Below, in pieces: positions 5,517-50,953 of a DNA stretch of 64,000 nucleotides. The stretch is taken from the IMG/VR virus record IMGVR_UViG_3300034375_009028; one strand, given 5' to 3'. Source of the stretch: a virus (taxonomy: Duplodnaviria > Caudoviricetes). Below the pieces are notes generated by a model that was not told where the DNA came from, did not search any database, and saw nothing but the letters and a program-made list of their open reading frames with translations. Position 1 is the stretch's first letter, and each line of letters starts with the position of its first letter. A program made the translations under genes and the position numbers.

Positions 5517-7424
5517 TTATATTCTTACTAAGTCTTCGTTTAAGTAACTAGATGTAACTATATATCCTGATCCAGAAAGATCAGTTCCTGAACTGATAGT
5601 ATCGTTTATTAAATTTACAGTTGAAGATGTTGTATCTAACTGTAGGTATAGGTCTTGTTTTCCTATAATATCATTTGATTCTGGAGTAGCTGATATTTCT
5701 ATTATTTTATCTCCAGCAGCATTTAATTTTGTGGTTGAGATTATGTTTAAGTAATTTAAATTAATCTCACCAGTTTTATAATTTATATTTCCTACCTTAT
5801 TCTTTACTACTACTGGACTATTTTTTGACTGCAATCGGAATATAAAGAGATCCCCATTAACATCATCTATAGGTTTATCTGCCAGATACACCACTCCAGA
5901 TATGTCACTGACAGTAAATCCACTTGATTTTATGTTATAACCCGTTTTTCTTTTTATATAGAAAGAATTACCAAAGCAAATTTCATACTGTGTAGTTGTA
6001 CCTTCAGTTATTTTTAGATCTCTTCTAATTGAAATTTTTGTAATATTTGATGTTATTGATTCTGACGTATCATCAATCAACTTTAAAAATTTACTGTATT
6101 TGAATCTAGATCCATAACTATTTAATTCTTTAGATTTTGAATATAATTCTAAGTTATTCTGTATCTTGTCCTTAATCGTGTTAGCATAACCTCGATTTAT
6201 ATTATAATAAACTGAAGAATTGTATTCAATATAAAGATATTTTAAATCAATAAATTCTGGTATGATTCCAGCAACCGAATATTTTTTTAATTTTTGTTTT
6301 AATGAGTCTTTTAGTAAATTTGATAGATAAGTTCCATTTCTAGGTTTTACAGTAATAAAGACTTTTCCATATTGTGGAGGATTTAGTTCTTCTCCACCAA
6401 AAACAGCAACTGATTCTGTTTCTGGATAAATTAAAGGAACTATAGTTTCATAATCTGACGCTGTTACTGCCCTATTTTGACTTGCATATAATCTAGGGGC
6501 GAATTTTTTTATTGATGATATTGATTCTATGGGTGATCCATAGTCACTAAATTCTATTGTTGTTAATATAGGAACATCGATATTAAGAGGATTTCCATTA
6601 TTATCTGTTAATATTCCATTAAATTCAAAAGATCTAACTCCATTAGCAAGTTCTCCTTTAGTCTTAATATAAGACACTATAATAAAGTTTTTATCTGAAA
6701 GAGCACTGCCAAATGTCCCATCACCAAATATTAATTCATACTTACTATCTTCAATTTCATTGATAAAGAATACTTTATCTGAAGATTTTACATTTGTAAT
6801 ATTATCTGCAAATTTATAAATTATAGAATTGCTGCTAGTCTTGCTATCCCTTACAGTTACTCTTATTGTATTTGTATCTATGTTATTATTGGATAATATA
6901 AATCTTTGATTCTTACTTAATGAATCTACAGTAAAAGTCTCCTCAATATAGTTACCTTCAAAAATATCAACATCTTTAAATTCTGCTAATTTTCCAGATA
7001 CTCTAGATCTAATATCATCTGGAATTGAATATACAAAACTATTTAAAAGTGATCCATCAGATGAAGAAGCTATAATTCCTTTTTTTACAACAACTGAAAT
7101 CGGATTCTGATCATATTCTGTTAAATCGACATAAAAAGATACCCTTGCTTTAGAGCACCTAACGGATCTTGGCAAATAACCAATATTTCTTGCAATAGAT
7201 ACTACGTTCTCTCTTAGAGTTGCTCCGTCTAAGAATACTTCATTAGTCAACATATTAGCATTATAAGAGCTAATATATGTGTTGTATGCTAAAGTATCTA
7301 AAAGAACTCTAAAATTAGATCCTTCAAAATCATAATCCGTAAATCTACCATCAGCTCTTAAAAAACTTTTGATAGATTCACGTATATCATTGAAGTCTAG
7401 TGATGATACGTTAACTAATGACAT
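5517..7424 (-). CDS. gp6: Baseplate wedge subunit gp6
   Basis: 635 aa; LDFNDIRESIKSFLR..FTDYDFEGSN...LAYNTY...FLDGATLRENVVSIARNIGY and QNRAVTASDYE are typical T4 gp6 motifs. Confidence 0.93.
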   Translation of the reverse strand: MSLVNVSSLDFNDIRESIKSFLRADGRFTDYDFEGSNFRVLLDTLAYNTYISSYNANMLTNEVFLDGATLRENVVSIARNIGYLPRSVRCSKARVSFYVDLTEYDQNPISVVVKKGIIASSSDGSLLNSFVYSIPDDIRSRVSGKLAEFKDVDIFEGNYIEETFTVDSLSKNQRFILSNNNIDTNTIRVTVRDSKTSSNSIIYKFADNITNVKSSDKVFFINEIEDSKYELIFGDGTFGSALSDKNFIIVSYIKTKGELANGVRSFEFNGILTDNNGNPLNIDVPILTTIEFSDYGSPIESISSIKKFAPRLYASQNRAVTASDYETIVPLIYPETESVAVFGGEELNPPQYGKVFITVKPRNGTYLSNLLKDSLKQKLKKYSVAGIIPEFIDLKYLYIEYNSSVYYNINRGYANTIKDKIQNNLELYSKSKELNSYGSRFKYSKFLKLIDDTSESITSNITKISIRRDLKITEGTTTQYEICFGNSFYIKRKTGYNIKSSGFTVSDISGVVYLADKPIDDVNGDLFIFRLQSKNSPVVVKNKVGNINYKTGEINLNYLNIISTTKLNAAGDKIIEISATPESNDIIGKQDLYLQLDTTSSTVNLINDTISSGTDLSGSGYIVTSSYLNEDLVRI

Positions 7425-10184: not shown

Positions 10185-10387
10185 TGATTCTATTATAGCA
10201 CCTTTTTACCCGAAAAATTTTCTGCGAGATTTTTTTATATACCTTATAACACACACTCGAATTGTCACCTCTGTAGGTTAGAGGGACCCGCTCATTATAA
10301 ACGCAGGGGGCCGCATTAGTATAACTTATCGATCGAATTAACTGCCATAAGGAATGCTGATCAATGAAATGTGTCCGCACGAACAAT

Positions 10388-10415
10388 AAAAAACCCCCGC
10401 ACGAATGCAGGGGTT
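10388..10415 (-). terminator. Intrinsic terminator
   Basis: Minus strand AACCCCTGC-ATTCGT-GCGGGGGTT followed by a T-run. Confidence 0.7.
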
Positions 10416-10431
10416 AAGTATACCTAACTCA

Positions 10432-10519
10432 CGGGTCGCTGGGTATAAAGAACTCAGCGACTCTAAGTGTTGCTCTCACGCATAAAAGGGTCGCTGAGTT
10501 CTTTATACCCAGCGACCCG
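10432..10519. repeat. Perfect 30-bp inverted repeat with self-complementary arms
   Basis: CGGGTCGCTGGGTATAAAGAACTCAGCGAC (10432-10461) is the exact reverse complement of 10490-10519; 28-nt spacer. Confidence 0.95.
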
Positions 10520-10530
10520 CTAAATGTAAC

Positions 10531-10788
10531 TTAGTGTGCCATTACGATGTAACGGAAGAATGTACCTTCTGCCAATTCTTCATCACTAGCGTCACAAATA
10601 GCAGTCCACGCAGGAACACTATTCGGACAATATACATCAACAGAATCTACAACGTCATCAGGAATAGCGTCAATTGTTGCTCCAAACCGCGCCCATAGTG
10701 TGCGGTTGCTAAGATCAAAATCGAACGATTCATCAATCGCAGCAATCCAATCGGTTTCAGATTGCAGTTCGGAGATGGTAAGTGCCAT
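10531..10788 (-). CDS. Hypothetical early protein
   Basis: ORF track, 85 aa, acidic. Confidence 0.7.
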   Translation of the reverse strand: MALTISELQSETDWIAAIDESFDFDLSNRTLWARFGATIDAIPDDVVDSVDVYCPNSVPAWTAICDASDEELAEGTFFRYIVMAH

Positions 10789-10843
10789 GAGAATTGAAAG
10801 AATCAGGGTGTGAGATAAGGGGGACGATTGTCCCCCGATTGTT

Positions 10844-10978
10844 CTATTCTTCGGGACCGAAAGCGCACTCTAGAGAGTACATTTCCAGTTCCTGATCATC
10901 ATCATAAACTGCCTGCCAATCCTCATCAGTGGGAGTGTAGATTTCTTCAATCTGCTGCTGATCAGTGAAAGGATTCAT
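10844..10978 (-). CDS. Small acidic hypothetical protein (44 aa)
   Basis: Hand translation MNPFTDQQQIEEIYTPTDEDWQAVYDDDQELEMYSLECAFGPEE; TATCAT -10 upstream. Confidence 0.65.
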   Translation of the reverse strand: MNPFTDQQQIEEIYTPTDEDWQAVYDDDQELEMYSLECAFGPEE

Positions 10979-11050
10979 GGGGTTGTCTGTGTGGGACTTG
11001 ATCATGATAGCGACTAGGGGGGCACCCCGTAGGGTGCCCGTTACCTTTGT

Positions 11051-11332
11051 TCACACTACAGCGGCGGCGATCAGATCACGCTTGCGACGGGTGGAGGGCA
11101 TGGAAAACCAGAGGTCCCGCTTGCCAGTTTTCTGATTTCGGGTTGCTGCCAGTTGCCCACGGGTTTCCAGATCCACCAGCACGGCGTGGATGGTGCCCTT
11201 GTGGCGCTTAGGATCAAGACCCATGGCGCGAACTAGGTCGGTGCCTGTCATCGGACCTTTCTTGATCAGGATGCTGCGGGCAGCGATGCGGATCGCGGTG
11301 TGGAAGCAACGGTCGATTGCGGTGATGATCAT
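11051..11332 (-). CDS. Winged helix-turn-helix DNA-binding protein
   Basis: ILIKKGPMTGTDLVRAMGL..KGTIHAVLVDLETRGQL...DLWF has the helix-helix-recognition helix-wing pattern. Confidence 0.6.
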   Translation of the reverse strand: MIITAIDRCFHTAIRIAARSILIKKGPMTGTDLVRAMGLDPKRHKGTIHAVLVDLETRGQLAATRNQKTGKRDLWFSMPSTRRKRDLIAAAVV

Positions 11333-11382
11333 GGTCTGGGTTGGGTTGTGCGGGTGTGTCCCGCGTGATCTAATGATAACGC

Positions 11383-11547
11383 CTAGAGGGTCACCTGCCA
11401 GGTCGTCGGAGCGGGTTTGTCACAATCTGAAATAATGAAAAGTTGTGAGAGAAAGTGTTGCCATTCAGCATCAGTCATCACCACACAATTCTTTTCATCA
11501 AGTTCGCGTTGTGCGCGTTCGGAAAGTTTCAAGCGGAGATCTTTCAT
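11383..11547 (-). CDS. Small hypothetical protein (54 aa)
   Basis: Hand translation MKDLRLKLSERAQRELDEKNCVVMTDAEWQHFLSQLF... Confidence 0.5.
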   Translation of the reverse strand: MKDLRLKLSERAQRELDEKNCVVMTDAEWQHFLSQLFIISDCDKPAPTTWQVTL

Positions 11548-11557
11548 TGTTCTGATG

Positions 11558-11719
11558 TCAGTTTTTTGTGGACTTGAAAGTTACAACCTCAGCAGGAGAT
11601 CCGCAGGAGCGATAGAAATCAACCATACGGTTTGCCTCATCAATAGTGGCAAATGTTTGCTCTCTCCACTCACAAGAATTGTAGGGAGTTTGGTAGCGAA
11701 TAGTGATGCCGATTGCCAT
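11558..11719 (-). CDS. Conserved cyanophage small protein (53 aa)
   Basis: Hand translation MAIGITIRYQTPYNSCEWREQTFATIDEANRMVDFYRSCGSPAEVV. Confidence 0.7.
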   Translation of the reverse strand: MAIGITIRYQTPYNSCEWREQTFATIDEANRMVDFYRSCGSPAEVVTFKSTKN

Positions 11720-11770
11720 GATGTTAAGGTGAAGAATGGGAGGGGGATTGCTCCCCCTAAGTGTTTCAAA

Positions 11771-12016
11771 TCAGGCGGTGATTTCCATCCACTTGATCGG
11801 TTGAATAGTTCCCATTTTCCAGATGGTAACTTTTCTCCCGTGCAGTTCTACACTCCAATCGAATGCAGCATCCCTGGCAGAATCGAAATCAGAAAACATT
11901 TCGATCATTGCCTCGTTAAAGTTGAAATCAGGACCGATTGCCCACATGATGCTCGTTTGGGTTGTGCGAGGTCCGTTGCCTCGCTTGAATGTATATTTGC
12001 ACCGATCGGGGTGCAT
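11771..12016 (-). CDS. Hypothetical early protein
   Basis: ORF track; DSARDAAFDWSVELHG pattern; true start may be downstream. Confidence 0.6.
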   Translation of the reverse strand: MHPDRCKYTFKRGNGPRTTQTSIMWAIGPDFNFNEAMIEMFSDFDSARDAAFDWSVELHGRKVTIWKMGTIQPIKWMEITA

Positions 12017-12024
12017 TTCAAGCG

Positions 12025-12222
12025 TTAGTGTGCGCTTTGCCGATTGGCACGTACCTTTGCAATTGTTTTCTTTATGTTTGCAATTGCGCGATGATCGCTG
12101 ATAGTTTTGGCGGTGACAATTTGCACACCGTCAGCATCACGCCAAACATAATGTTTCTTCTCACGGACTAGTTCAAATCCGCAGGATTTCATGTACTCTT
12201 TTAGAATGTTTTTGGTTTTCAT
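12025..12222 (-). CDS. HicA-like (dsRBD-fold) mRNA interferase, no HicB partner
   Basis: GFELVREKKHYVWRDADGVQIVTAKTISDHRAIANIKK matches the HicA pattern G(F/W)xxxRxxxxH...(T)PSD.RA..N. Confidence 0.6.
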   Translation of the reverse strand: MKTKNILKEYMKSCGFELVREKKHYVWRDADGVQIVTAKTISDHRAIANIKKTIAKVRANRQSAH

Positions 12223-12257
12223 GATAAAGAATGGGGGGCAATCGCCCCCCTGTTAGG

Positions 12258-12872
12258 TTAGATCAAACCCTTGTGAATGCGACGGTATGCAACCCATGTG
12301 ATCGCTTGAATTTGCGATGCTAGGTGTACCTTACCTGTCACCTCAGAGATTAACTTAGCAGCGTCACGGTAAGCATCTTGAATCTTACCGAAAGTCTTGT
12401 CTGACATAGCAGGAACCGCTTTCAGGTTAGAAACACTGCCGTTCCAAACATTGTAGGCGTGACCATCAATGCAAGGCGTGTCACTTTTACCATCAGTGGC
12501 AATACAGAGAAAAAATGCGATAGTTTTGTTGCCACGCAATACTTTCACAATTTGCTCCCTTTTAAGTTGCAAATCAAGAATCATGATCGCCTTATCTTTG
12601 TTTGCAGAGTAACTACAAACAGAGACAGAATTGTAGGGGATTTCATATGCCCAGGCACGCAACATTGCCTCAGCATCCTCTACATTTCTTTCCCACTTAT
12701 TGTTTGGGGAAAGTGCAGCGATCACACCTGCCACGATGTCAGAATCGACACCATACTTTTCGCCAAGGTCAACACAAACGCCATAGGCGTTGCTGTACCA
12801 TTGCAGACCTATTTGGCGATCGAGAGTGTTGCTCTGGAAATACATCGCAACGATCGAATCAGTGTGTGCCAT
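12258..12872 (-). CDS. Phage protein with HhH-GPD/EndoIII glycosylase-like features
   Basis: GLQWY..A, VIAALSPNNKWERN, LRGNKTIAFF and CIDGHAYNVW (cf. glycosylase VDxH), QIQAITWV; widespread phage family. Confidence 0.55.
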   Translation of the reverse strand: MAHTDSIVAMYFQSNTLDRQIGLQWYSNAYGVCVDLGEKYGVDSDIVAGVIAALSPNNKWERNVEDAEAMLRAWAYEIPYNSVSVCSYSANKDKAIMILDLQLKREQIVKVLRGNKTIAFFLCIATDGKSDTPCIDGHAYNVWNGSVSNLKAVPAMSDKTFGKIQDAYRDAAKLISEVTGKVHLASQIQAITWVAYRRIHKGLI

Positions 12873-12898
12873 GTCGTGAAATGAATTTCGACCCTCAA

Positions 12899-12927
12899 AG
12901 TATTGCAGCGATCCGCTGCAAAGTCAA
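12899..12927 (-). promoter_or_regulatory. Sigma70-type early promoter with a palindromic spacer
   Basis: TTGACT-17 nt-AATACT; the spacer region is TTGCAGCG-GAT-CGCTGCAA. Confidence 0.75.
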
Positions 12928-12984
12928 CAGGTTTTAGATCAGCAACGCTTATCAGTGACATCAGAAATACTTATAGCCCAGGGG

Positions 12985-13014
12985 TTGACTTTAGGGGCAC
13001 ACTGCCCCTACGCT
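12985..13014 (+). promoter_or_regulatory. Candidate plus-strand (antisense) sigma70 promoter
   Basis: TTGACT-18 nt-TACGCT; the spacer contains TAGGGGCA-CAC-TGCCCCTA. Confidence 0.45.
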
Positions 13015-13051
13015 AGAGGGCGGGAGGGGTGGGAAGCACAATAAAAAATAT

Positions 13052-13080
13052 AAAAAAATACCACGCCGAAGGCGTGGTAT
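13052..13080 (-). terminator. Intrinsic terminator
   Basis: ATACCACGCC-TTC-GGCGTGGTAT plus a T-run on the minus strand, downstream of the 13139 gene. Confidence 0.85.
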
Positions 13081-13138
13081 GATACAACCCACTTACTTAC
13101 AAATCAATCACACAAACTATACAATAGGCATTCTCCGT

Positions 13139-13327
13139 TTAGTTTAACATCCAATGGGGGTCATTGTTGACATTAACCCAGAAGAAGTTGCGATTGTTTG
13201 CACTTCTTAAGAATAGCATGTCGCCTTTAACCTGTTCAATGATACAGGTTCCGTCACATCCCATTAGATTAGCAAAACGGTTTTTTGCTTTGCTAGATTT
13301 TGGCGTGACGGTTGCCAGGGTGTCCAT
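13139..13327 (-). CDS. Conserved cyanophage hypothetical protein (paralogue of 37766..37960)
   Basis: VTPKSSKAKNRFANLM...LFLRSANNRNFFWV..NDPHW. Confidence 0.75.
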   Translation of the reverse strand: MDTLATVTPKSSKAKNRFANLMGCDGTCIIEQVKGDMLFLRSANNRNFFWVNVNNDPHWMLN

Positions 13328-13500
13328 CAGAATTCAATTGGTTGATCTGTTGGTTGAATTGTAGCACACTTTGTCATGTACTTATGAATCTTCTGATCCA
13401 TTGATGGAGTCTCCTCAGAAGTAAGATTCTCAAGAATCCAGAGGATCTCAGAACCAGTTTGACCTTTCTTCAAAAGAGTAGTCATCATTTCAGTAGACAT
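13327..13500 (-). CDS. Small hypothetical protein (57 aa)
   Basis: Hand translation MSTEMMTTLLKKGQTGSEILWILENL...; TGATG overlap with the next gene. Confidence 0.65.
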   Translation of the reverse strand: MSTEMMTTLLKKGQTGSEILWILENLTSEETPSMDQKIHKYMTKCATIQPTDQPIEF

Positions 13501-13549
13501 AATTGAATCCTTAGATGACGTGAATTTAGTCGAGATTAATTGATTGATA

Positions 13550-13585
13550 CTCGACGAGATAATTTGATGATTACCTCGTCGAGAT
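13550..13585. repeat. Two CTCG(T/A)CGAG palindrome copies
   Basis: CTCGACGAGAT at 13550 and CTCGTCGAGAT at 13575; same core as at 14891 and 16437-16518. Confidence 0.85.
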
Positions 13586-13594
13586 TTTCTACAC

Positions 13595-13855
13595 TCAGGC
13601 AGTCACGATTTGCAGAGTGCCATCCTTGATCTGGCAGTTGATGAAGGAACCAACGCTCTCACCCAGGCGGATCACCTCATTGGCATCCTGTTGGAAGCGA
13701 GCAGGATCCTGCACAGTGTAGTTGTAATTGCGTCCGCCCTTAAAGGTCACGGTCACGTTACCATCATCCATGATGCTCAGGGCATCAAGGGCAGAGGAGG
13801 TGAAGGTGGAGACTTCCAGAGCGGTAGGAGCAACAGGGGTAGCAGTCATGATCAT
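13595..13855 (-). CDS. KTSC-domain-like protein
   Basis: SSALDALSI...VTVTFKGGRNYNY...ESVGSFINCQIK matches the KTSC pattern (SS.I....L.V.F..G..Y.Y...S.G.Y.N..IK). Confidence 0.6.
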   Translation of the reverse strand: MIMTATPVAPTALEVSTFTSSALDALSIMDDGNVTVTFKGGRNYNYTVQDPARFQQDANEVIRLGESVGSFINCQIKDGTLQIVTA

Positions 13856-13963
13856 AAAAAAATAAAGGTTTGAGTGAAGTGTTTTGAGCGGGATGCTTCA
13901 CCCCCGCTGATGCAATCAGTATAGCATGGACTGGTTGGGGGGTGGAACCCCCCTTGTGCCAGT

Positions 13964-14215
13964 TTAGAGATCGGTCAGCATCTCATCCAGGGCAGCGGTG
14001 TCGATGGTGGGATCCATCCAGCGAGCACCATCAGGAGTCATCTGACCCCACATGATTTCCAGACGGGGAATCAGGGAGTCGTAGGAGTCATAACGCTGAG
14101 CGACCCGATAGGTTTCGTAGTCGTTCTGAATCCAGAGGGACACGTTCCAGGTTGCCCAGTTCTTCCAACCGTTGAAGTCGGTGCGCTCAGGGATCAGAGA
14201 AGTGAGGCGGTCCAT
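13964..14215 (-). CDS. Conserved phage protein (NGWxNxxTWNV family)
   Basis: FNGWKNWATWNVSLWIQND; preceded by the TTGACT-17-TATTGT promoter. Confidence 0.75.
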   Translation of the reverse strand: MDRLTSLIPERTDFNGWKNWATWNVSLWIQNDYETYRVAQRYDSYDSLIPRLEIMWGQMTPDGARWMDPTIDTAALDEMLTDL

Positions 14216-14237
14216 GTGTTTGTTTGAACTGAGGTCA

Positions 14238-14266
14238 CAATAGGACGGATGGGGGGCAGAGTCAAC
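14238..14266 (-). promoter_or_regulatory. Sigma70-type early promoter
   Basis: GGGG-TTGACT-CTGCCCCCCATCCGTCC-TATTGT (17-nt spacer). Confidence 0.75.
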
Positions 14267-14277
14267 CCCCTGACTGA

Positions 14278-14460
14278 TTAGTTTTCCTGATCCTCCAACA
14301 GTTCAGGATAATAATCTTTAATCTCAGTGATTAGTTCTTCTTGAGTGTAATCAGTGAGATTTTCTACCAATGTGTCATAAACAAAACATTCCATTGTTTT
14401 CATGTCCATGCTATCCAGCAGTTGCTGAGCATAGGAATGAATCAGATCTTCTTTGTTCAT
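14278..14460 (-). CDS. Hypothetical protein
   Basis: ORF track, 60 aa (YAQQLLDSMDMKTM...YYPELLE). Confidence 0.7.
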   Translation of the reverse strand: MNKEDLIHSYAQQLLDSMDMKTMECFVYDTLVENLTDYTQEELITEIKDYYPELLEDQEN

Positions 14461-14461
14461 G

Positions 14462-14662
14462 TCAGAATGAGAGGTAGGGATGATCAGAGTCTAACTCCTG
14501 ATTGGTGTCGGATGCGGTGAGAAGTGTTGTGATGGGATAATACTCATCAGCATCTGGATCATACACCATAGGAGTGCAGTCTAGTTGCTCTGCTGTCATA
14601 GACTGTAACATGATCAAAAGATCTTTGTAAGTCTGACAACCGTAGGGTGCATTAGGTGTCAT
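14462..14662 (-). CDS. Hypothetical protein (likely start MTPNAPYG)
   Basis: ORF track trimmed to the ATGA overlap with the upstream gene. Confidence 0.65.
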   Translation of the reverse strand: MTPNAPYGCQTYKDLLIMLQSMTAEQLDCTPMVYDPDADEYYPITTLLTASDTNQELDSDHPYLSF

Positions 14663-14874
14663 TTGAGAATAATGCGATAATCTACAGATTTGACGCACCA
14701 TCCTGATGCAGTGCTGATCTCATCCATGAGATCTTCTTCATCATCAGCATCCCAGAATTGACCGACATAAACATCACTAAGACGTTCTTCTGTCATGATC
14801 TGATCTGATTCTGACCAATCATCCTCACAATCGAGAGAACAATCGAATTGAATTGAAGTGATTTGATACTTCAT
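14659..14874 (-). CDS. Hypothetical acidic protein (likely start MKYQITSIQFD)
   Basis: ORF track trimmed to the ATGA overlap. Confidence 0.7.
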   Translation of the reverse strand: MKYQITSIQFDCSLDCEDDWSESDQIMTEERLSDVYVGQFWDADDEEDLMDEISTASGWCVKSVDYRIILK

Positions 14875-15005
14875 GATACTTGCGTGCGCGTCTCGTCGAG
14901 ATTTTCTGAACAAAGAAATTCTAGCATGTAGTAATCTACCGTGACTTCTTTCGCCGCGGCCAATTCCTCAAGAGCAGAGTCAAATGCAGCGTCAAGTTCG
15001 TTCAT
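14871..15005 (-). CDS. Small hypothetical protein (44 aa)
   Basis: Hand translation MNELDAAFDSALEELAAAKEVTVDYYMLEFL... Confidence 0.65.
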   Translation of the reverse strand: MNELDAAFDSALEELAAAKEVTVDYYMLEFLCSENLDETRTQVS

Positions 15006-15073
15006 TGGAGTGGTGTGAACTGAAGTAATTATTGCACCCCCCAGGTGGTTCTGGGGGGATTGGTGGACAGTGC

Positions 15074-15595
15074 TCAGACCGTCACAAGAGATCCTTTGCC
15101 AACAGTCAGTGGTTCCTCTGTAAGGAAGTCATACTCAGCGGTGTTAGTGTCACCCCATCCCAACTTCCAACACTGCCAACCATCACCAGGAGTGAACAGA
15201 TAGCACCACTCTTCTCCACAATTACCACTGAGGAAGTCATCGAAGTCGCCAATCTTAGGGGGAGCATCCTCACCTCGCTCACTGTAATACAGGGGCGAAG
15301 GTGTTGCTTTCACTGGAGAATAGACCCAGTTGTCATCAGCATCACGCATGTAATCGACGGTCTTTGTACCATCAGCATGGTGAATTGTTTGCTTCAACGG
15401 TGCAGATTCCCACATGTGGGTAGAGTGAAGCGAGGACATATCGCCACCGTTGATGAGTTCTTCTACCTGTTCTTTATAAAGGTAGTTGTCAATTAGTTTG
15501 CGACCAGTATACTGAATGTAACCGTCATAATGACAGTAAACACTGATGATCTGATCAGGACCGAGGGCAAGACCGATGCGAGAGCGAGTTCCCAT
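15074..15595 (-). CDS. Conserved phage protein (MGTRSRIG..SVYCHYDGY family)
   Basis: The ATG at 15595 gives the family-typical N-terminus; TACACT -10 with hairpin upstream. Confidence 0.8.
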   Translation of the reverse strand: MGTRSRIGLALGPDQIISVYCHYDGYIQYTGRKLIDNYLYKEQVEELINGGDMSSLHSTHMWESAPLKQTIHHADGTKTVDYMRDADDNWVYSPVKATPSPLYYSERGEDAPPKIGDFDDFLSGNCGEEWCYLFTPGDGWQCWKLGWGDTNTAEYDFLTEEPLTVGKGSLVTV

Positions 15596-15663
15596 GGGTT
15601 GTGAGTGGGGTGAACTGGAATCAGTGTAGCAGATTTGGGGGTGGTGTCCACCCCCTGAGGGAA

Positions 15664-15837
15664 TCAGTAGCGAGAATCCTCCAAGGTCTCCTTGAAGACC
15701 TGACTGACCTCCTCCCAGTGGTAGTCCTTCAGAGGACCGCACTGGTCTTCCATCCAATCATACACCATGCACCAGTCGGCGTCCATTTCTAGGACGAACT
15801 GAGGCAGGGACTGGAGAGCGGACTTAAAAGTGGTCAT
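15664..15837 (-). CDS. Hypothetical protein (paralogue of 18553..18819)
   Basis: MTTFKSALQSLPQFVLEMDADWCMVYDWMEDQC; TTGCCA-17-TAATAT promoter at about 15861-15889. Confidence 0.7.
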   Translation of the reverse strand: MTTFKSALQSLPQFVLEMDADWCMVYDWMEDQCGPLKDYHWEEVSQVFKETLEDSRY

Positions 15838-16132
15838 GACCCGTTGGGTGAACTGCACAAATATTACCAACCCCTCCAACCCCTGGCAACCGCTTCCGAA
15901 CCACCTCACAGACTGTCACAGGCACCTCTCACAGCGTTTTAAAAGTCGTTATAATCTATGGACAATCAGCACCAACGGCAGTGGGGTAACTGCCTGATCA
16001 ATGCATCGTCACTCAACTTGCAATATTTTTTTATAAAAAACATTAAGAAAAAACCCATTAATGTGTGCCATCCCACAAACACACACTAATGGGTTATTAT
16101 AATATGTTAAGAAGTAGTTATGGTGTACCCAC

Positions 16133-16306
16133 TCACCAATTCGTAGCGTCTAGTTCTTCAACATATGCACTCACGGTCTCATCACCCTCCAGTTGGAACA
16201 CGTCATCATAATTGATTTGATGAGCATCAAAATCGTCACGAACTTCGAATTCTAAAGTAACACGAACTTTGCGCTTTTGTGCTGCGTGGTAAACTGAAGA
16301 TGCCAT
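16133..16306 (-). CDS. Conserved cyanophage small protein (57 aa)
   Basis: Hand translation MASSVYHAAQKRKVRVTLEFEVRDDFDAHQINYDDVFQLEGDETVSAYVEEL. Confidence 0.75.
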   Translation of the reverse strand: MASSVYHAAQKRKVRVTLEFEVRDDFDAHQINYDDVFQLEGDETVSAYVEELDATNW

Positions 16307-16330
16307 GAGAACCTTTGTGCGAACAGTGAT

Positions 16331-16359
16331 ATTATACTATGAGATTTAATATCCGTCAA
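16331..16359 (-). promoter_or_regulatory. Strong sigma70-type promoter
   Basis: TTGACG-17 nt-TATAAT. Confidence 0.85.
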
Positions 16360-16408
16360 CGCATGAACGTGACAATCACGATGATATTTAGAATGTTATA
16401 ATGATCTT

Positions 16409-16520
16409 ATGATTGATATTATGATGATTCGCACACATCTCGTCGAGATTTATATGATTGATATATGATTGATGACGCACATCTCGTCGAGATTGTCAAG
16501 TGCGCGTCTCGTCGAGATTT
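16409..16520. repeat. Iteron-like tandem repeats with ATCTCGTCGAGAT palindromes
   Basis: Copies at 16437, 16481 and 16507; the first two sit in ~45-bp direct repeats starting ATGATTGATA. Confidence 0.9.
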
Positions 16521-16553
16521 GTGAGACCCCTCATATATTTTTCTTCGCGGTTC

Positions 16554-16582
16554 TTGTATTTTTTTCGCGGTTGTGCTATAAT
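16554..16582 (+). promoter_or_regulatory. Plus-strand sigma70 promoter with extended -10
   Basis: TTGTAT-17 nt-TATAAT with TGC before the -10; no plus-strand ORF downstream. Confidence 0.7.
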
Positions 16583-16654: not shown

Positions 16655-16705
16655 TTATCCACAGTAATTCATACCTTTTCCACAGAATACGCAGAGTTTT
16701 CCACA
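16655..16705 (+). promoter_or_regulatory. Three DnaA-box consensus sites at 21-bp spacing
   Basis: TTATCCACA (16655), TTTTCCACA (16676), TTTTCCACA (16697), each followed by G; all fit TT(A/T)TNCACA. Confidence 0.75.
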
Positions 16706-16818
16706 GTATGTCAGCAAAAGAACAAACAACACATATACATTTATTTTAACATTTATAAGTTAAAAAAGCATTAAAAACAGGTAATTTCAGGTTAAATCTG
16801 CATATTATCAAATAGAAT

Positions 16819-34762: not shown

Positions 34763-35236
34763 TTAGTAACTAAATTGCTCCCACTCAGAAACTTTTGAGT
34801 TCATAAGTTCAAAAGTTATTTTATTCCATGGTGCTCTTGGTTTTCTCATTAACTTCATAGTAGTATGTTCAAGTAATTTATCACTTTTTTTGATGTTACA
34901 TGAACTACATGCAACAACTAGATTTTCCCAACTATCTTCTCCTCCTTTGCTACGAGGAATTACATGATCCAATGTCAATTTTGATTTTGAACCACAATAC
35001 TGGCAGGTATTATTATCTCTCTTATAAATTCCTGTTTTTGTTGGTCTTTCTCTTGATGACATACTCAATGGAATTTTAATGTAGTTAACAAGTCTAACAA
35101 CTCTTTCTGAAATTACTTGGACTTTTTGCTTTAAAATCAAAACCACTGCCCTCTTCCAACTTGTAAAATTTATTGGAATATATGAGGAATTAAGTACCAA
35201 TATAGTATGATGTGGTTTTATTTTTAGATGTTCCAT
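34763..35236 (-). CDS. HNH endonuclease (McrA-like)
   Basis: RDNNTCQYCG..LTLDHVIPRSKGGEDSWENLVVACSSCNIKKS. Confidence 0.92.
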   Translation of the reverse strand: MEHLKIKPHHTILVLNSSYIPINFTSWKRAVVLILKQKVQVISERVVRLVNYIKIPLSMSSRERPTKTGIYKRDNNTCQYCGSKSKLTLDHVIPRSKGGEDSWENLVVACSSCNIKKSDKLLEHTTMKLMRKPRAPWNKITFELMNSKVSEWEQFSY

Positions 35237-37784: not shown

Positions 37785-37960
37785 TTAGAGTCCTTTTCTT
37801 TGTTAACTGAGAAATAATATTCTTTATTGAGAGATTCTAGGTAATAAACATCATTCTCTTCATGCTTTACCCTACAAGAATGAAGACCCATCATGTCAAA
37901 TTCAAAGTCAATTTTTGCCTTTGAACTAATGGGAGATACACAGACAAATTTAGTTTTCAT
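37766..37960 (-). CDS. Hypothetical protein (paralogue of 13139..13327)
   Basis: VSPISSKAK..F...M..L.S.N..Y.F.V....D.NW. Confidence 0.7.
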   Translation of the reverse strand: MKTKFVCVSPISSKAKIDFEFDMMGLHSCRVKHEENDVYYLESLNKEYYFSVNKEKDSNWRIIR

Positions 37961-38178
37961 TGTACAAAAATAGTTCCAGATTTGGGTTTGGTACGATGCT
38001 TTTTAATGAAGTTCATCGCAGATGATTGAGTTCTACATTGTTTAAGATGCTCGCCATAGTATACTACCATATATCCTTTTTGACAAGGTACAGCAGCGTA
38101 TCCATCTTTAGTTACAAAACCATCACTACAATCCTTGTAAAAATTGTAAATTTCCTTTAGTTCTTTATCAGTAGTCAT
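37957..38178 (-). CDS. Conserved cyanophage hypothetical protein
   Basis: GFVTKDGYAAVP...GYMV.Y.G......RT..SA..FI..HR. Confidence 0.7.
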   Translation of the reverse strand: MTTDKELKEIYNFYKDCSDGFVTKDGYAAVPCQKGYMVVYYGEHLKQCRTQSSAMNFIKKHRTKPKSGTIFVQ

Positions 38179-50620: not shown

Positions 50621-50699
50621 ACTACTAAATCCGTTTTTAATATTTAGTTTTGTAGGAGGGCGCTCCCATATAAGAAAGACCTTTAATATTCCCCCCAAG

Positions 50700-50783
50700 T
50701 GCGAGTAGGGAGACTTGAACTCCCACGGGATTACTCCCAACAGATTTTAAGTCTGGTGCGTCTACCGATTCCGCCATACTCGC
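50700..50783 (-). tRNA. trnL: tRNA-Leu (UAA), no encoded CCA
   Basis: GCGAGTA/TACTCGC acceptor stem, CT-TAA-AA anticodon loop, long variable arm, GTTCAAGTC T-loop. Confidence 0.92.
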
Positions 50784-50787
50784 ATTT

Positions 50788-50862
50788 TGGTAGGACTGGA
50801 GGGAATTGAACCCTCTTCACACCGTTATAAGCAGTGGGCCTTAACCAATAGGCGACAGTCCC
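50788..50862 (-). tRNA. trnI: tRNA-Ile (UAU) with encoded CCA
   Basis: GGGACTG/CAGTCCT acceptor stem, CACTG-CT-TAT-AA-CGGTG anticodon arm, GGTTCAATTCC, ACCA end. Confidence 0.9.
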
Positions 50863-50865
50863 GTT

Positions 50866-50953
50866 TGGTAGGAGTAGGGAGACTTGAACTCCCACGGGCG
50901 TAATGCCCAACAGATTTTAAGTCTGGTGTGTCTACCGATTCCACCATACTCCC
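50866..50953 (-). tRNA. trnL: tRNA-Leu (UAA) with encoded CCA
   Basis: GGGAGTA/TACTCCT acceptor stem, same anticodon arm as 50700..50783, ACCA end. Confidence 0.93.

Follow-up and report, generated by a model that had tools for sequence, protein, structure and literature searches.

Clustered palindromes ahead of small early genes of some T4-like cyanophages: a candidate operator array

The 64 kb of DNA from the virus record IMGVR_UViG_3300034375_009028 (Duplodnaviria; Caudoviricetes) belong to a freshwater T4-like cyanomyovirus and are referred to here as the window. All genes of the window lie on the minus strand. Among its small early genes are seven copies of a short palindrome, ATCTMGWCKAGAT, arranged as two clusters of three (A and C) and a single copy (B):

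13524-13536, site A0, a degenerate copy (ATTTAGTCGAGAT) with one mismatch to the relaxed consensus, 24 nt ahead of the ATG at 13500
13548-13560, site A1, with its central base inverted relative to the other copies
13573-13585, site A2, a motif match
14890-14902, site B, the single copy, 14 nt ahead of the ATG at 14876
16437-16449, site C1, a perfect 13-mer, centred about -119 from the transcript start of the 57-amino-acid (aa) gene at 16133-16306
16481-16493, site C2, a perfect 13-mer, with TTGACA (16499-16494) directly ahead on the gene strand, like the promoter of P-SSM2, and no -10 hexamer after it
16506-16518, site C3, identical over 21 nt to the site B unit

The core CTCGWCGAG matches exactly six times (at 13550, 13575, 14892, 16439, 16483 and 16508), all within 13550-16516 and nowhere else in the 64 kb, against an expectation of 0.03; none of 100 shuffled sequences reached six. 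An earlier note, made from the letters of the window, had counted these six copies and one partial one, and the count is borne out, with the degenerate seventh copy at 13524. Each site consists of 6-bp arms flanking a single central base. In the window scan, the full 13-mer palindrome ATCTCGTCGAGAT occurs without mismatch at 16437 and 16481, with one mismatch at 13573, 14890 and 16506, and with two at 13548 and at 13524-13536. The relaxed pattern TCTMGWCKAGA, with up to one mismatch, returns the same seven places plus 1125, 44649 and 60418, and these extra three are about the chance level of 2.2. Within the window clusters, the spacings are 24, 25 and 44 bp. The 21-nt string said to be identical at 14884-14904 and 16500-16520 is so; the two direct repeats of about 45 bp described in cluster C exist in a looser form, as 31-nt units of 81% identity, 44 bp apart, at 16420 and 16464.

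All three groups stand ahead of small genes. Cluster A, with spacings of 24 and 25 bp, occupies the gap between the stop of the gene at 13595-13855 and the start of that at 13327-13500, at 24-85 nt from the ATG at 13500, and a 62-aa gene comes next. Site B falls within the last codons of a 44-aa open reading frame (ORF) in the window and is intergenic in relatives. Cluster C lies between two divergent promoters, with C2 and C3 centred at about -163 and -188 from the transcript start of the 57-aa gene; relative to the predicted start of the plus-strand promoter, the three centres are at about -146, -102 and -77. The genes and signals concerned are the following:

13139-13500, minus strand, two small genes after cluster A, the first of 57 aa and the second of 62 aa
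14659-14876, minus strand, acidic gene of 72 aa, downstream of site B
16052-16095, minus strand, strong intrinsic terminator ending the transcription unit of the 57-aa gene
16133-16306, minus strand, acidic 57-aa early gene downstream of cluster C, whose family follows the array in relatives
16331-16359, minus strand, promoter of the 57-aa gene, of sigma70 type (TTGACG-N17-TATAAT), with a predicted start near 16324
16554-16582, plus strand, divergent promoter TTGTAT-N17-TATAAT with a TG element, firing into an ORF-free cassette of DnaA boxes

The minus-strand promoter named in the earlier note agrees with the consensus at 11 of 12 positions. Its plus-strand partner fell below our scan threshold, its -35 hexamer being TTGTAT; the TGcTATAAT is present, and the position is homologous to that of promoters in relatives, S-SM2, S-SRM01 and P-SSM2 having TTGACA-N17-TAGAAT-type promoters at this place. 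A tandem 20-nt repeat (TTTT.TTCGCGGTT.T) at 16539-16578 runs across the -35 region of this promoter. A GC-rich island at 10200-16000 (GC 0.42-0.59, against about 0.30 for the genome) takes in sites A and B, with cluster C just past its right edge, and houses the small early genes, after many of which comes a G5...C5 hairpin.

Expression was assessed from contigs of four lake metatranscriptomes, in which strand and true ends are not shown and DNA carry-over is possible. In two runs the 57-aa gene forms a separate short contig, at depths of 211 and 49, against 3-24 for its neighbours, and these contigs stop at 16297/16315 and 16129/16072, in keeping with the predicted start and the terminator. 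No RNA contig covers 16316-16529 in the four runs, which hints, weakly, at the array being a control region left untranscribed beside a very active gene. Could the palindromes instead work in RNA, as hairpins that terminate, process or stabilise transcripts? Cluster A and site B do lie within RNA-contig stretches. However, the minimum free energies of the hairpins (0 to -4.2 kcal/mol) are no better than those of shuffled sequences, a terminator-type T-run does not consistently follow the sites, Rfam holds no match and the missing contig cover over the main cluster is, again as a weak hint, of the same tendency. Hairpins this weak argue for sites in double-stranded DNA and against an RNA role, and we regard an RNA-level element as extremely improbable and already weakly refuted.

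The palindrome is not confined to this phage. When IMG/VR was scanned for pairs of copies separated by 5-35 nt, a pattern whose 24 fixed bases make chance occurrence essentially nil, at least 119 contigs proved to have paired copies of ATCTMGWCKAGAT, in clusters of 2-9. The listed loci contain 623 core motifs in 1.06 Mb, have GC contents of 0.35-0.49 and have small early genes in common with the window; their clusters are mostly intergenic, at 0-150 nt ahead of small ORFs. As a logo, the site reads (A/T)TCTCGWCGAGAT(T), variants with CTAG replacing CTCG or CGAG are common, and orientation, judged by the central base, is mostly uniform inside a cluster. Spacing across the 119 listed loci ranges from 21 to 67 bp, with peaks at 24, 32 and 42 bp. 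One record (G001) has motif spacings identical to those of the window, is the same phage and is not independent evidence. Window DNA is present in many freshwater metagenomes, a megablast search of the region against an isolate phage collection gave no match, and, for the gp6-type baseplate wedge encoded on the minus strand at 5517-7424, Prochlorococcus phage P-TIM68 and Synechococcus phage S-SM2 are the nearest named relatives, with about 52% aa identity. Two contigs of bacterial metagenome-assembled genomes, L141 (Rhodobacteraceae) and L159 (Bacteroidetes), have 7 and 9 sites together with cyanophage early genes, including homologues of a winged helix-turn-helix (wHTH) protein, and look like misbinned cyanophage DNA. 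A paired-site scan of genome contigs returned mostly high-GC bacteria, at about the chance number, plus two misbinned phage contigs, and was uninformative on hosts.

Genome-wide counts, run on the complete genomes of relatives, place the copies in a single region. In S-SRM01 all 11 exact copies fall in 85571-91005 (5.4 kb of 240.8 kb), in three clusters; in P-SSM2 all four relaxed copies fall in 66030-66169 (140 bp of 252 kb). The earlier note had named even scatter over the genome and lack of conservation in relatives as the outcomes that would sink its proposal, and neither was seen.

The sites also keep a characteristic position. In every case the main cluster is flanked on one side by a conserved cassette of divergent promoters and on the other by an early gene of 50-60 aa, which in the window is that at 16133-16306; the biggest clusters, 62 in all, lie upstream of homologues of the 57-aa gene, whose family occurs in 81 of 120 loci. 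Read in the direction of the gene, most loci begin with an oppositely firing conserved promoter and several sites, continue with a sigma70-type promoter whose 17-nt spacer opens with a site and with a further site just ahead of the ATG of a tiny acidic ORF, and end with a second promoter that overlaps the end of that ORF, followed by the 50-60-aa gene. P-SSM2 is an example, with TTGACA, a site and TATAAT in a promoter of 17-nt spacer and a second site ahead of PSSM2_098. Exactly one promoter-embedded site is found in 68 of the 119 listed loci. Inverted copies make up 41% of those in the promoter position, compared with 16% overall, and strict -10 hexamers peak 7-8 nt past the core; a -10 at the fixed distance accompanies only about 12% of non-redundant sites. 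The tiny ORF encodes 45-68 aa rich in Tyr and Asp, starts with MYDDYDLDY, ends with LAYRHYA and is open in all 36 distinct IMG/VR variants; in examples such as L259:6125-6280 (PSSM2_098 of P-SSM2) and L130:2326-2463 (S-SRM01), its final codons overlap the promoter that follows. A few other early genes, notably those of the 62-aa and 53-aa families, have smaller clusters ahead of them. In other phages, members of the 62-aa family have two or three sites directly ahead, and the S-SRM01 cluster at 88165-88252 precedes a homologue at 88259.

Compared with this layout, the window has a reduced module: the tiny ORF is absent, and C2 retains its TTGACA without a -10 hexamer. This raises the possibility that the sites are at work in phages with the tiny acidic gene and its promoter still in place, and are functionless, decaying leftovers in the lineage of the window, which also has fewer sites than its relatives. 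The conservation within that lineage speaks otherwise. The three copies of cluster C are perfect over 11-13 bp, and the A, B and C positions are retained in five diverged members while adjacent bases change: in an alignment of cluster C from the window and the loci L089, L112, L036 and L034, the sites are kept and the spacers diverge, with insertions and deletions. The sites of A and B are likewise retained at the same genes across the lineage. A CTAG-variant site stands in L036 at the position equivalent to A0, a pair of the A1/A2 type at 24 bp is also present in L089 and L112, and the 22-nt site B unit AAAATCTCGACGAGACGCGCAC is kept in L112, L089 and L034. Decay to a relic is accordingly a reading to which we give very little credence. 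On these sequence comparisons, we take the palindrome to be a real, conserved, lineage-restricted cis-element, present in the window in a trimmed form.

What does the element do? The earlier note had offered binding sites for a dimeric phage initiator or regulator, or substrates for nicking or recombination. Several lines of evidence favour sites for a dimeric protein: the palindrome is symmetric, its hairpins are weak, sites are kept while spacers diverge, and in relatives a copy sits in a promoter spacer. Our best reading, which we consider somewhat probable, is that the ATCTMGWCKAGAT copies are operators through which one sequence-specific, dimeric protein governs a small early regulon in a subset of T4-like cyanophages; the sites, their restriction to one region, their conservation and their placement relative to promoters and genes are shown, and what we infer is that a protein binds them, that it acts on transcription and in which direction. 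Arrays of operators at phage early promoters include OR/OL of lambda, bound by CI and Cro, those of Arc and Mnt in P22, and the sites of p4 and p6 at A2c/A2b/A3 of phi29. Similar to these, the cyanophage sites are short palindromes (13 bp, within the 11-21 bp expected of such operators) present in several copies between divergent early promoters, and in relatives one copy lies in or against the core promoter and others lie up- and downstream. Such an overlap with a core promoter is found in the 68 listed loci and in P-SSM2. Unlike the known arrays, the cyanophage sites do not adjoin one another but stand 24-65 bp apart, no cognate DNA-binding gene was found adjoining them, their carriers are strictly lytic T4-like viruses and, in the window, neither of the two intact core promoters is overlapped.

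If the sites are operators, the ancestral and commonest layout would comprise the divergent cassette, upstream sites, often an inverted spacer site right after the -35 hexamer, a site before the ATG of the tiny acidic gene, and the 50-60-aa unit. An occupied row of sites would cover the promoter and its flanks, and the simplest effect would be shut-off or timing of very strong early units. In the window, the tiny gene and its -10 hexamer would have been lost, leaving three sites upstream of the 57-aa and divergent promoters and four further sites ahead of two other early genes. There, the factor might act from upstream, by looping, activation or insulation of the divergent promoters, or as a roadblock in polycistronic early transcripts.

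Several observations weigh against the operator reading. First, no site overlaps an intact core promoter of the window, the nearest centre being at about -77 and the others further upstream, so simple occlusion cannot be the mechanism there. Second, cluster A and site B are inside continuous RNA-contig stretches with no obvious transcript boundary. Third, in the tiny ORF of relatives the palindrome is in frame and encodes Asp-Leu-Asp-Glu, with synonymous variants that preserve the peptide; part of the conservation in relatives could, judging from these codons, be protein-coding. Fourth, eleven isolates (S-SM2, P-TIM68, Bellamy, SynMITS9220M01, S-B05, S-SCSM1, DSL-LC03, Syn9, S-PM2, P-SSM4 and S-RSM4) have no copy or one stray copy, yet retain the cassette and the 57-aa gene; as these phages do without the sites, the function is dispensable. 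Finally, no binding protein was found, six candidates having failed tests of presence and absence.

The panel for these tests comprised complete genomes of 2 carriers and 11 non-carriers, together with 12 long contigs of carriers. The wHTH protein at 11051-11332, suggested in the earlier note as the binder, has no detectable homologue in the complete carriers P-SSM2 and S-SRM01, occurs in 4 of the 12 carrier contigs and has upstream regions free of sites. The 62-aa protein at 13139-13327 occurs in four non-carriers and the 73-aa protein at 37957-38178 in three; the HNH protein at 34763-35236 is present in the non-carrier S-SCSM1 and missing from a carrier contig that is 81% complete. The family of the 57-aa protein is also found in non-carriers, and its N-terminus is alike in carriers and non-carriers. 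A 58-aa AbrB-like family (PSSM2_102; 93311 in S-SRM01) is present in both complete carriers and in none of the 11 non-carriers. As a binder it was rejected: it is absent from the window, from the flanks of L036, L089 and L112 in a hidden Markov model search and from G004, the 102-kb contig of L036; of 25 IMG/VR loci with the family, 11 lack an array within 9 kb; and it is acidic, with no Pfam match. This acidic AbrB/MazE-like protein (L259:9223-9414, that is, PSSM2_102; 93311-93487 in S-SRM01) occurs in at least 524 IMG/VR stretches, and many carriers have it a few kb downstream of the array. Comparison of the proteomes of P-SSM2 and S-SRM01 with those of five non-carriers yielded no other credible DNA-binding protein in common with the window. 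The binder may be encoded by the host. As for the genes downstream of the sites, Pfam has no family for the 57-aa protein, its relatives of 50-60 aa or the acidic proteins of 45-68 aa; an AlphaFold model of the 57-aa protein (mean predicted local distance difference test score 81) has almost no regular secondary structure, and a fold search with this model gave no match in the PDB.

The neighbourhood of cluster C suggests a different role, as the iterons of a replication origin, in which the array would be the initiator-binding part beside host-type DnaA boxes, an AT-rich stretch and an inward promoter. DnaA boxes (TTATCCACA and TTTTCCACA) do lie at 16657-16707 with an AT-rich tract, 140-250 bp from C3, and cluster C directly adjoins the divergent promoter and the ORF-free cassette that holds them. 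Copies in mostly one orientation with an inverted copy in the downstream promoter would also resemble iterons accompanied by an autoregulatory inverted repeat. A precedent is oriE of T4, where direct repeats of 12 nt, set at even intervals and of unknown role, lie beside an early promoter on which the origin depends (PMC3016281). Like oriE, the cyanophage array belongs to a T4-type phage, is a repeat cluster beside an early promoter and a candidate origin, and is kept at syntenic positions in relatives.

By contrast with oriE, the cyanophage units are palindromic, variably spaced (24-65 bp, with no fixed period) and present at several loci ahead of genes; they are missing from many relatives that retain the cassette, and counterparts of repEA and repEB are lacking. 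The same cassette of DnaA boxes and divergent promoter occurs without palindromes in S-SM2, Bellamy, SynMITS9220M01 and S-SCSM1. Further clusters lie 1.6-5 kb away ahead of unrelated small early genes, namely those at 13.5 and 14.9 kb in the window and the three clusters of S-SRM01. No Rep-like gene adjoins the array; the products encoded downstream are the acidic ones of 45-68 aa and the 57-aa protein whose fold search was empty. The iteron and initiator idea, which the earlier note had put forward, is in our judgement unlikely.

The remaining proposal of that note, site-specific nicking or recombination, would make the repeats short homologies or endonuclease targets that shuffle the cassettes of the early region. 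The genome is at its most variable where the sites lie, here a GC-rich island; the 21-nt unit is identical at two places 1.6 kb apart; a deletion in the window relative to L089 and L112 is bounded by sites; and one S-SRM01 cluster abuts an HNH gene. A comparable case would be the PeSL cassettes of T4-type phages, each a stable stem-loop terminator with a sigma70 early promoter (PMC2839356, PMC4122927), which likewise are short regulatory sequences repeated between tiny ORFs of hyperplastic early regions. Unlike PeSL, however, the palindromes fold weakly and most units have no promoter, with about one site per array in a promoter. Presence of the 21-nt B/C3 unit at the same gene in three relatives points to an old extended variant of the site, not a recent duplication. 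HNH genes do not track the motif, as S-SCSM1 and the 81%-complete carrier contig attest, and direct support for nicking or recombination is lacking; we hold this role to be quite improbable.

Three further features of these genomes were recorded. A conserved non-coding string, AACAACACATATACATTTA, is found downstream of the DnaA-type boxes (window 16715-16745; L006:4070-4090; L007:4001-4035) and is common at the DNA level to the window, S-SM2 and P-TIM68, even though the proteins are only about 50% identical. A second recurring element, TGGACAGT...ACTGTCCA / GTGGACAGT..GTGGCACAA, lies beside site B in L112, L089 and L034 and also upstream of wHTH genes, and may be a general early-promoter element of these phages. 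Three minus-strand tRNA genes (Leu-TAA, Ile-TAT and Leu-TAA) are located at 50699-50953 of the window.

In oceans and lakes, T4-like cyanophages rank among the most abundant viruses that infect picocyanobacteria, and the timing of their early genes is poorly understood; to our knowledge, they lack MotA and AsiA, the T4 factors that reprogramme transcription. In the literature we found no published description of the palindrome element. A bolder form of the operator reading, which we hold to be doubtful, is that the array is the assembly platform of a nucleoprotein switch, with a host (picocyanobacterial) factor coupling the silencing of the strongest early units to the firing of the DnaA-box, promoter-primed element; if true, this would be the first defined control element of a T4-like cyanophage replication origin, used by a subset only. 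The site is wired into strong early promoters beside the best candidate origin region. Sharply defined, and present in phages that can be grown (P-SSM2 and S-SRM01) as well as in at least 119 environmental contigs, it offers a direct biochemical handle, and its presence or absence among otherwise similar phages is a natural experiment on what the module contributes.

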